DNA from: Heterodontus francisci
Lineage: Eukaryota
NCBI RefSeq assembly: GCF_036365525.1
Contig: NC_090411.1
Location: 26,672,819 to 26,736,818 of the forward strand
Length of the DNA stretch: 64,000 nt
Direction of reading: 5' to 3'
The notes beneath the pieces are model-generated. The model was given only the letters and a program-made list of their open reading frames with translations, searched no databases and was not told where the DNA came from. This document shows, in pieces, positions 5,578 through 60,386 of the stretch; the first letter of the stretch is position 1; the number at the start of each line of letters is the position of its first letter. A program made the translations under genes and the position numbers.

Positions 5578-8555
5578 ATGGATTCTCAGATTTGTCAAAA
5601 CTATCACCAGGATTGTGAGGCTGCTGTCAACCAGCAGATTAATGTGGAACTTACTGCTTCCTATTTTTATCTTTCTTTGGTGAGTGTTGTCTCTGGGTTT
5701 GAAATAAAATCTATTATGTTGAGTTAAATTCTTCCCCCTATTTCAACCTAACTTGACTGAGTTATGTTTTAACTAAATATGTTCTTTCAAATAAATTTTA
5801 GTAGTAATCTTGTTATAACTGTGATGTGATAAATGTTTGTTAATAGATTTGCTAACTGATTCCAAGAGTGATAAATGCAGAGCAAAAGTGTCCTTATGCA
5901 TTGAAATTCATCTTTTACAATTCATTTGTAGGATGTGGTTGGTATTTACTGCCCATTTATCTAGTTGCCACAACTGCATAGCTTACTAAGCTATGTCAGA
6001 TGGTGGTTTAAGTTAGTTATGTTAATGTGGGACTGGAGTCACCCATAGACCTAATCAAATAAGGACACTAACTTTCATTTGTGAGCCAGTTGGGTAATGA
6101 ACAATTTGACACTTTCTCTGTTGCTTTTCTTGGTATTTCTGAATTTTCTTAAGACTGCCTGGGATTTGAGTGTAGGTTCTCTAGTCCAGCAACAGTGTGC
6201 CAATGTCTTGTTTGAACTTTGACTGTACTTTGATGCAGTTAACATTGAAGAATTTGGTTCCATTTCCTTGAGTTGTGAACAATCCTAATTGTTGTACAAT
6301 GGCAGGTTTACAATGATTTTGGAAGGCCTGTGAATATTACATTTGAAGGGACTTTCATTGTGTCTATAAAGTTGTCCATTTTCTTTAGTGTTAATTGTAT
6401 TCTGGCTACTATTTCAACTCTTTAATCTTGAATTTAAAGTACACATTACAATGCACAATGCTTAAATTTCATTAATACTCAACGTTTCCAGTCTGATGGA
6501 ACATTCCTATCAGGAAAACTACTAATTCCTTCAGGTTTTCTAGTGAGTTTGGTGATCAATTTGGAGTTAGATGGTTTTGTTCCACTTCTACCTGCCTAAT
6601 CTTCACAATTGGGAACAGAAGGCATTTAATTACAGACCATTCAGAACTTCTAAGGAAGAGCAAGAGAATTTAATGTGACTACATTATTGAGCAGTCGGTT
6701 TAATTGAAAACAGGAAGACTATTTGGTTCTAACCTTTTTGAGGAATAAATGGAGGCCAATTGTGTGAATGAAATTTGAATTGTTCTTTCAGATGTCTTTC
6801 TTTGACCGGGATGATGTCGCCCTGGACAACTTCTCCCAGTTCTTCAAACATCATTCCCATGAGAAGCAGGAACATGCGGAGAAGCTGATGAAATTCCAGA
6901 ATCAGCGTGGAGGCCGCATCCTCCTACAGGATGTGAAGGTTTGAAATGGCTGCTTTAATGTATCTGCAAGCTGCATCAAGTTTCTTTCCATGTAGAGTTC
7001 CTTAGCTTCACCTGTCTAATCTCATTCCTGGGTAATTCTACACACCAATATCTGTTTTGTGGGCTGAGCTATAGCAGTGATGCACTGTGAATTCATGTTT
7101 TGACTCCCTTGCTCACAATAGTTCCACAGCCCTCTCTAAGTTAGCTGCCCAATCTAATCTCTCCTAGGTTACAGCACTTCAGGTGCAGGTCCAGGTAGCT
7201 TTTTAAATGAATTGAGGGTTTCTGCCTCCACCACTGATCTGGGGCAGTGAATGCCAGACTCCTACCACCATCTGGGTGTAAAGGTTAATCCCTATGTCAC
7301 CTCAAATCCTTCTACCAATCACCTTTAAACCTGTGCCCCCTGGTAACTCTCTCCAATGGGGAGAAACAGGTCCTTCCTGTCTAATATCCAGGCCCCTTAT
7401 AATTGGATCCTGAACTCTTAATTTCAGTGGGATTGAGCCAAAATCAACATGTTGAAATAGCTGAACCTTCAAACAGTATAACTGTCTTTTCCCATTTCAG
7501 AAACCAGAGAGGGATGAGTGGAGCAATGGTCTACTGGCAATGCAGGTTGCCCTCAGTCTGGAAAAGAATGTGAACCAGAGTTTGCTGGATCTACACCAAC
7601 TCGCCACCACCTGTACTGACCCTCATGTAAGCTTCTCTTCTTCCTAATTCTGGTCACTAATAGACTTGTGTATTGTTTCATTCACTTTGAAGTGATCAAC
7701 CAAAAATGGACCAATTAAACTCCAAACAGATTTACTTTTGTCCATGGATAGACCAAATAGCCATTGATCCAAAGATAACATTACATACTGCTTAGCAGTT
7801 GGTGAAAATCTCTTTTAAAAATAGAACTTGATTTAAACTGTGGCTTTGTTAGCATGCTGCCTGAGTTGAGAGGTTGTGGGGCAAAAAGCTGAAGTGCTAC
7901 ATTAAAAACCAGACCAGTCATAGACTGGTTAAGATGAAATGTTCAAAAAGGCCCCATCTCAATGAGAGGATGTAAAAGATCACATTGAAATCCAGAAGAC
8001 TGCTGTTGTCCCAGTGTCCTGGCCAATATCTAATCCCTCCATCAACTATAGTTTGTGGGAGCTTGCTGTGTACAAATTGCTGCATTTTCTACATCACAGC
8101 CAAAGTACTTTTGAAGTGTCATTAGTGTTTTGGGATGTCCTGTCAGATTTGTATAGCATCTTTCACAGCCTCTGGACATTCCAAACTGCATAACAACCAA
8201 TGAATATATTGAAGTTTCATTTAAAAGATGCTGTGTTTGAGTGACCATAACCTGACATAATGCAGCATACCACATCACTACCTGAAAGCAATCTCCCTAC
8301 TGAAAGCAGGAGTGAGAATTGGCTGCTGAAAAACTGATCTTCATATTTGGCATCTTGCAACTGTGTATATGTAATGACATATTTTTTCTTCCCTTCCAGC
8401 TGTGTGACTTCCTGGAGACTCACTATTTGGATGAGCAGGTGAAGGTGATCAAGCAACTTGGGGACTACATCACCAACCTGAAGCGTCTGGGAGCTCCTGA
8501 GAATGGGATGGGAGAGTACCTGTTTGACAAGCTCTCTCTCAAGGAGAGTAGCTAA
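5578..8555 (+). CDS. fth1-like: Ferritin heavy/middle-type subunit, copy 1 (type A), 176 aa; exons 5578-5679, 6792-6938, 7501-7626, 8400-8555
   Basis: Spliced translation [176 protein letters not shown]. All introns are GT-AG, phase 0, at vertebrate FTH1 positions. TATAAA lies upstream and AATAAA downstream. Confidence 0.96.
7835..8145 (+). mobile_element. Old DeuSINE-like (SacSINE1/AmnSINE1-like) element in intron 3, present in all five genes
   Basis: Motifs GGATGTAAAAGATC, TGTCCTGGCCAATAT, TTTGTGGGAGCTTGCTGTG and TTTGGGATGTCCTG resemble the DeuSINE consensus as recalled; not database-checked. Confidence 0.55.
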
Positions 8556-8679
8556 TGTGACCATTTTGAATGTAGACTACTTTGCCTATATGTGACATGC
8601 ATTTCAACTCTACACAATTTCTCCACACTCAGCCACCCAGGAGAAAGCTGAATTGGAATTGATGTACCACATTAGTTGA

Positions 8680-60200: not shown

Positions 60201-60386
60201 ATGTAATGACATATTTTTCTTCCCTTCCAGCTGTGTGACTTCCTGGAGACTCACTATTTGGATGAGCAGGTGAAGGTGATCAAGCAACTTGGGGACTACA
60301 TCACCAACCTGAAGCGTCTGGGAGCTCCTGAGAATGGGATGGGAGAGTACCTGTTTGACAAGCTCTCTCTGGAGGAGAGTAGCTAA
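57237..60386 (+). CDS. fth1-like: Ferritin heavy/middle-type subunit, copy 5 (type A), 176 aa; exons 57237-57338, 58475-58621, 59272-59397, 60231-60386
   Basis: Intact frame and splice sites; variants A15V, T26S, N46E, L111F. Confidence 0.95.

Follow-up and report, generated by a model that had tools for sequence, protein, structure and literature searches.

Ferritin genes with a lysine in the ferroxidase centre

The stretch analysed here (the window) comprises 64,000 nucleotides of the Heterodontus francisci genome (NC_090411.1, positions 26,672,819 to 26,736,818) and carries, on its plus strand, five complete ferritin genes in which a glutamate of the ferroxidase centre is replaced by lysine (Lys59). 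Each gene shows the vertebrate ferritin architecture of four exons (102/147/126/156 nt) and three introns, all introns are GT-AG, and every product has 176 residues and no internal stop. Copy 1 lies at 5578..8555 (exons 5578-5679, 6792-6938, 7501-7626 and 8400-8555), copy 2 at 17347..22117 (17347-17448, 17913-18059, 18749-18874 and 21962-22117), copy 3 at 31677..34808 (31677-31778, 32914-33060, 33712-33837 and 34653-34808), copy 4 at 43467..47691 (43467-43568, 44036-44182, 44872-44997 and 47536-47691) and copy 5 at 57237..60386 (57237-57338, 58475-58621, 59272-59397 and 60231-60386). The lysine is encoded by AAG on the plus strand (6864-6866, 17985-17987, 32986-32988, 44108-44110 and 58547-58549 in copies 1-5), within a ten-residue centre stretch that is identical in 5/5 copies. 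Window residues 3-175 align to residues 7-179 of the human H chain (Met counted), and K59 thus corresponds to E62 of the mature chain. The fish ferroxidase centre consists of Glu24, Glu58, Glu59, His62, Glu104 and Gln138 (PMC4117605). In the window copies E24, Y31, E58, H62, E104 and Q138 are retained, the only exception being E24D in copy 4. Both the lysine common to the five genes and the retention of the other ligands, with Asp24 in copy 4, had been proposed in a first-pass annotation made from the letters of the DNA, and the gene models, their translations and the alignment bear them out.

Copy 1 matches the Pfam Ferritin model PF00210 (E 2e-32), and the best match of the window protein among solved structures is the frog M ferritin (E 2e-85). 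Copies 1 and 4 are identical to the RefSeq proteins P0499 and P0500, both named for H. francisci; the RefSeq labels of the Lys59 genes, "heavy chain-like" or "middle subunit-like", conceal the Lys59 difference. The coding sequences of the window copies differ by 8-20 nt and 3-9 residues (1.5-3.8%), and the large duplicated blocks in which they lie are 95-97% identical. One such block, 21919..35384 (+), is part of a two-gene higher-order repeat unit of ~26 kb and is 97.2% identical to 47496-60959. The window copies are not a product of chance and are unlikely to be an echo of the assembly; an artefact of that kind was ruled out by the divergence of the coding sequences together with the presence of this clade in further shark species. 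Fragments of reverse-transcriptase-like open reading frames, possibly LINE remnants, sit within and between the ferritin genes (19812-20489, 24987-25964 and 50569-51512) and have been duplicated along with the array.

Two ferritin arrays on one chromosome

The species' own genome was searched with exon 2 (116 matches among 122 candidates) and gene models were built on the fetched regions. The window belongs to an array of 13 intact genes over 162 kb (chromosome C41, 26.667-26.832 Mb; the K array), in which the centre of a catalytic H or M subunit is incomplete throughout, with K59 in 13/13 genes. Two broken relatives lie at 26.835 and 26.368 Mb. At a distance of 5 Mb, a second cluster (C41, 31.65-32.28 Mb) holds 70 intact, 16 flagged and 7 partial ferritin genes, the 16 having been flagged by a fixed-exon model and not all being necessarily broken; K59 occurs in 0/70. 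Sixty-eight of the 70 form the Glu59 array (E array), in which all seven listed ligands (those named above and position 59) are retained in 64/68 genes. The E array (C41:31,650,000-32,250,000, L051-L110) is nearly all Met141 and runs in two opposed blocks, on the minus strand to 31.815 Mb and on the plus strand thereafter. Amplification is therefore not specific to Lys59, with 13 Lys59 genes against 68 intact Glu59 array genes. The first-pass annotation had described an amplified family with intact reading frames: the frames are intact and the family extends beyond the five genes it saw, but the tie that it drew between amplification and the substitution is overstated.

The coding DNA of the K array is nearest to the E array (78-79% identity versus 72-73% to the M gene). 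FTH1 stands apart as one gene on C14, with a bestrophin gene in tail-to-tail orientation; the Lys59 genes fall outside the FTH1 clade and do not lie beside bestrophin, so they are not FTH1 orthologues. Other ferritin loci lie on the same chromosome. An intact gene at C41:32,310,856 (L115) has K24, T58, Q62 and S138, clusters in the tree with the salmon "lower subunit" (93/90, each on a long branch) and represents a second, separate shark ferritin lineage with an altered centre. Two divergent single genes stand at the cluster edge (L111 and L112; C41:32,259,658 and 32,261,230-32,268,200), one with E58K and H62Q, the other with an iron-responsive element (IRE) ~3.9 kb before the called exon 1, where the gene model may be wrong.

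Conservation across sharks and selection

Homologue searches found the Lys59 type in Heptranchias, Cetorhinus, Carcharodon, Mustelus, Scyliorhinus, Chiloscyllium, Hemiscyllium, Stegostoma and Rhincodon, and clusters of K-type proteins at 90% identity have up to 76 members. Membership of the K clade was judged from eight alignment columns that avoid the centre, with a minimum identity of 75%, and 84 public proteins qualified; the set was seeded with K-type queries, is rich in orectolobiform near-copies and does not represent 84 independent events. K59 and E104 are both kept in 84/84 of these proteins, which come from five orders, while H62 is kept in 78/84 and E58 in 79/84, position 141 varies, and 49 proteins carry Glu138 against 31 with Gln138 (4 not covered). 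Across sharks, identity to the window protein is 82-90%. Among the matches listed, rays, sawsharks and chimaeras contribute no K-clade protein. E59, for its part, is found in 53/58 public E-type proteins. A species-specific oddity is ruled out by the 84/84 retention of K59 and E104, and the Lys59 subfamily is, as judged from these alignments, old and shark-wide.

The mean ratio of nonsynonymous to synonymous substitutions (dN/dS) within the K array is 0.19 (78 non-independent pairs), and the Lys59 genes are under purifying selection. A pseudogene array was also considered and ruled out on the basis of the 13 intact frames, this ratio and the spliced contigs described below.

Other changes of the centre occur outside the K clade (P0146, P0152, P0157, P0125, P0078 and P0016): Heptranchias and Pristiophorus have E-type genes with K59 or N59, a chimaera Q138A protein is sister to the E array, and a lungfish protein has Q138K. 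Some K-type shark ferritins are filed as Salmonella and a vertebrate-type ferritin as Aeromonas (P0530, P0533 and P0012), probably from contaminated bacterial assemblies.

Transcription and an IRE-less promoter

Four sequencing runs (X1-X4) were aligned to copy 1. That they are RNA is a guess, the search having listed no run on record as such, and their tissues are unlabelled, which tells against the tissue role proposed below, and contig depths, which cannot rank genes, were not used for ranking. The runs cover exons and intronic repeats. Splice joints between exons 2 and 3 and between exons 3 and 4 are present in X1, X2 and X3, and loose ends in X1 run from exon 1 into exon 2; no K-type joint was found in X4, which is no evidence of silence. 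At the Lys59 codon the contigs list no alternative letter. The end of exon 4 with the 3' untranslated region of copy 1 (8511..8651, +) is found in this copy alone of the 13 (the closest of the others reaches 86% along its whole length), and an X1 contig matches it without difference, indicating a transcript specific to copy 1; an AATAAA follows ~127 nt downstream of its stop. The Lys59 genes are thus transcribed and spliced, and the spliced contigs in X1-X3, the copy-1-specific one included, tell against the lack of expression that the first-pass annotation had named as a ground for abandoning its proposal. In addition, C10 carries a processed K-type retrocopy that lacks introns and has a frameshift; its nearest parent is window copy 2 (97.4% identity), and its existence suggests transcription in the germ line or early embryo. 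Further intronless ferritin copies (L046-L050) lie on C36, C48, C3 and C32 (E-array type) and on C37 (FTH1 type).

The proximal promoter and 5' leader of copy 1 (5280..5577, +) contain CCAAT-type boxes and a TATA-like box 105 nt before the ATG, and no IRE. Three K promoters align with five E-array promoters in 15/15 pairs (z 12-19 versus shuffles); as an example, the stretch upstream of copy 2 (17053..17291, +) aligns to the upstream region of an E-array gene with a score of 96 against 27 +/- 5 for shuffled sequence. With sequence upstream of five other paralogues, namely FTH1, the M gene, the lower-subunit gene and two other single genes, the K promoters gave no alignment (15 pairs, z <=2.2). 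Among 12 scanned loci, Rfam places IREs at three, namely FTH1, the M gene and a further single-copy gene, and none in the window or at the scanned E-array and K-array loci; a pattern scan found no full IRE stem-loop upstream of the 13 K or the 68 E genes. Several copies have a CAGTGT close to their 5' end, which was rejected as an IRE loop because it has 0/5 stem pairs and no Rfam match. In all 13 K-array genes, the first 200 nt of the 3' untranslated region are free of simple cytoplasmic polyadenylation element motifs. The E-box CAGCTG is present within 400 nt upstream (window 5280-5330 and equivalents) in 12/13 K genes versus 1/68 E genes. This distribution rules it out as an oocyte signature common to both arrays, and the two arrays may differ in timing or tissue.

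Origin of the lysine

We consider it likely that Lys59 arose separately from the coelacanth and tetrapod light chain, FTL, that is, by convergence, and the homology between the K and E promoters is the main evidence for this. Mammalian FTL carries an IRE; for that reason the simplest history would be a single IRE loss in the chondrichthyan ancestor of the K and E arrays, followed by Glu59 to Lys in the K array. The two arrays have C6, K19, N106 and K153 in common. In a protein tree of 93 rows, the shark K genes are monophyletic (100/99), coelacanth and tetrapod L chains, all with K59, form another clade (98/98), and the K clade is sister to the chondrichthyan E array (86/80), an arrangement found in 261/300 bootstrap trees against 19/300 for K with L. 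A lysine at site 59 requires at least five changes on the tree and so recurs easily; it is one transition away from glutamate.

The competing account is that the shark genes are FTL orthologues, Lys62 having been fixed once, before the split of sharks and bony vertebrates, in an L-like non-catalytic partner; sharks would then keep an early stage, and coelacanth and tetrapod L chains would have lost His65 and Gln141 later. We give it appreciable but clearly lesser credence. In its favor, K59 is present in all 16 L-clade rows, two coelacanth proteins among them, the combination of Lys62 with Glu107 is found in the K genes, I5, L34, S49 and K59 are common to K and L against other groups, and E138 is common to orectolobiform members and L. 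The trees contribute further points that weigh against a separate origin: the branch joining K and E is not starred, the tree constrained to K with FTL is 3.47 log units better than the free one (93 rows, p-AU 0.613 in the approximately unbiased (AU) test), and in a 60-row subset, from which 33 long or redundant rows were dropped, all p-AU are >=0.3 with or without the site columns. On full alignments K with L scores slightly better (within 0.6 log units of K with E in the 60-row set), but when the eight site columns are removed K with E is ahead by 2.6-3.2 log units, which is not significant. The free tree sets the K clade apart from FTL in the phylogenetic check that the first-pass annotation had suggested, but the AU test fails to reject K with FTL. 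Its argument that the H/M-like backbone points to convergence is not supported, the K with FTL tree fitting equally well. On present alignments the protein data fit both arrangements alike and leave convergence undecided.

The chromosomal setting can also be read both ways. C41 carries RUVBL2, SNRNP70, a neurotrophin, a GFO/IDH/MocA gene and glycogen synthase, the neighbours of FTL in human, and this favors orthology; however, it is the E cluster that lies inside the RUVBL2-to-GYS block, and the K array lies ~3.7 Mb outside it. Orthology also has to accommodate the IRE-less promoter common to K and E in place of the IRE of mammalian FTL and the lack of rays, sawsharks and chimaeras from the K-clade matches listed. 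Moreover, the loss of His65, Gln141 and often Glu27 that marks L chains is not seen in this genome. A search for BAX through the Bcl-2 family gave no usable position among ~150 dispersed matches in the genome. The Bcl-2 family matches themselves, at least 150 genome-wide, fall mostly in the first ~60 profile positions and on many contigs, and may represent a repeat with a Bcl-2-like fragment or retrocopies. There are three glycogen synthase genes (C14:47.99-48.10 Mb, C27:16.55-16.59 Mb and C41:38.39-38.72 Mb), of which the one on C41 spans ~325 kb.

Two further groups of K59 ferritins bear on the history of the residue elsewhere. The coelacanth proteins P0471 and P0478 group with tetrapod L chains, indicating a K62 light chain older than tetrapods. 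Marsupial proteins labelled "FTHL17" or "heavy chain A-like" (P0233 and P0370-P0379) have K59 but fall, on a long branch, among sauropsid M-type ferritins and not with FTH1. For the shark genes, the balance is that they are probably a shark re-invention of an L-like subunit, and possibly the FTL orthologue itself.

Predicted activity and role of the Lys59 subunit

By analogy with characterized ferritins, the lysine very probably removes the iron-bridging ligand and pairs with Glu104, giving a subunit that folds and assembles and would oxidise little or no iron. The salt-bridge pair of L chains is K62-E107. In L chains a stabilising salt bridge takes the place of the centre (PMC4642653), Glu62 of the H chain ligates both iron sites and E62K/H65G abolishes H-chain activity (PMC6929972), and E62K is said in a review to suffice to abolish the activity of FTHL17 (PMC7760355). 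The fixation of K59 and E104 while other ligands drift fits this prediction, since a salt bridge in a dead centre would produce such a pattern. A Mustelus relative of the window protein (P0011) has a predicted fold of the ordinary ferritin kind, a four-helix bundle plus E helix, with a predicted local distance difference test score (pLDDT) of 89 and template modelling (TM) scores of 0.92-0.95 to H and M ferritins, and the 3-fold channel residues H115, D128 and E131 are retained.

The Lys59 subunit may join catalytic Glu59 subunits in mixed assemblies, where it would act as a storage-type partner that adds stability, most likely in the ovary or oocyte, a proposal that we rate slightly below an even chance. 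The steps would be the following. A gene of the IRE-less, iron-unregulated Glu59 array, on the chromosome of M and FTL, would have been duplicated, and one G-to-A change would have fixed Glu59 to Lys, independently of coelacanth and tetrapod FTL. As in FTL and FTHL17, the lysine would remove the ligand that bridges the two irons and pair with Glu104. The resulting subunit would mix with Glu59 subunits in a tissue that stockpiles ferritin at any iron level, and tandem amplification would raise dosage, likewise in the catalytic array. Ovary-specific expression has been reported for the largest ferritin cluster of a shark (10.1101/2024.09.09.611499).

Several observations pull the other way. The ovary result concerns another shark's largest cluster, which may not include the K array. 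Selection is of the same strength in both arrays (mean dN/dS 0.18 for the E array, sampled one gene in four). The helix B patch reads H54, H57, E58 and E61, versus EEEE in a mammalian and a frog L and KHEE in coelacanth L; since cavity positions 54 and 57 are His and not acidic, L-type nucleation is not supported. This species retains E24, Y31, H62 and Q138, so the subunit may still bind some metal, and the classic null mutant is the double E62K/H65G and not E62K alone (PMC6929972).

The missing acidic cavity patch would suit a role like that of FTHL17, namely a germ-line ferritin that has given up storing iron to act as a regulator, to dampen ferroxidase activity dominantly in mixed cages, or to serve as a bulk structural or storage protein. 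The same substitution on an H/M-like backbone, the amplification, the lack of an IRE and the germ-line transcription implied by the retrocopy are all consistent with it, and X3, with E-array sequence at loose ends and K contigs at low depth only, gives a weak hint of separate production. However, contig depths do not allow such a ranking, the 3-fold channel residues are retained, and the K clade is conserved at 82-90% identity, unlike the low-stability FTHL17, so we find this role improbable. That the altered site keeps useful ferroxidase activity and Lys59 merely tunes it is very hard to credit: six of the seven listed ligands are present in 12/13 genes of this genome, but other clade members have lost H62 (to Arg, Cys or Tyr), E58 or Q138 and yet keep K59, and E62K alone is reported to abolish activity (PMC7760355).

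The best explanation overall, which we hold with about even confidence, is an old shark subfamily that arose as a Glu59 to Lys duplicate of the IRE-less array and serves as a non-catalytic partner. In the usual picture, fish ferritins are catalytic H and M chains, and the K62 light chain is a tetrapod trait. The shark Lys59 class, the coelacanth Lys59 genes and the shark lower-subunit gene suggest that non-catalytic subunits are older, or have been re-invented more often, than this picture allows. The hitherto unexplained shark ferritin expansion splits into a catalytic and a probably non-catalytic array with one IRE-less promoter type. A more speculative and rather doubtful extension is that sharks made their own light chain by one substitution in an IRE-less duplicate, kept since the major orders split and pairing with a catalytic array of ~70 genes in an iron-independent egg store. 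If true, this would be a single-residue natural model of the initial step from H/M to L. The shark protein, one residue from an active centre, makes it possible to ask directly whether E62K by itself confers L-like stability and storage behaviour.

Comparison with known ferritin systems

Two parts of this system are already known, namely the shark ferritin expansion with ovary expression and, in FTHL17, an amplified H-like ferritin with E62K. Full-text literature searches, with most subscription journals outside their scope, turned up no report of a shark Lys59 class or of IRE loss in these arrays. The ferritin clusters of the Greenland and white sharks are likewise large, old and tandem, and the Greenland shark preprint, which describes the clusters as common to the white shark, labels the copies FTL or FTH1; "ferroxidase" occurs 0 times in its main text, and its passage on the clusters contains neither the ferroxidase site nor the IRE nor a Lys59 class (10.1101/2024.09.09.611499).

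Teleost and amphibian M ferritins resemble the shark genes in their 176 residues and provide the best match among solved structures, but they keep Glu59 and are catalytic; salmon M genes carry IREs, and the M and L chains have been placed together in a single orthologous group (PMC4117605). The amphibian and teleost "lower subunit" also has a changed centre, and its shark counterpart is the L115 gene on the same chromosome, but its changes are Lys24 and other residues, Glu59 is kept, and it is a separate lineage.

The closest parallels are FTL and FTHL17. With FTL, the light chain that carries K62 in coelacanth and tetrapods (among its forms the "light chain, oocyte isoform"), the shark genes have in common Lys62 with Glu107, a four-exon gene and the large-scale chromosome neighbourhood. 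Unlike FTL, they keep E27, H65 and, in this species, Q141, show ~72% identity with H/M chains and 58-68% with named L chains, have His and not Glu at cavity positions 54 and 57, lack an IRE and stand in 13 tandem copies. FTHL17/Fthl17 of placental mammals likewise combines E62K with an H-like backbone and retains most of the other ligands; it lacks ferroxidase activity, is multi-copy in mouse and is expressed in the germ line (PMC7760355, PMC5312872). It is, however, X-linked, FTH1-like, of low stability and partly nuclear, whereas the shark genes fall outside the FTH1 clade, in trees that contained no placental FTHL17 row. Taken together, the Lys59 genes probably resemble FTL or FTHL17 in their working and are no more than possible members of either.

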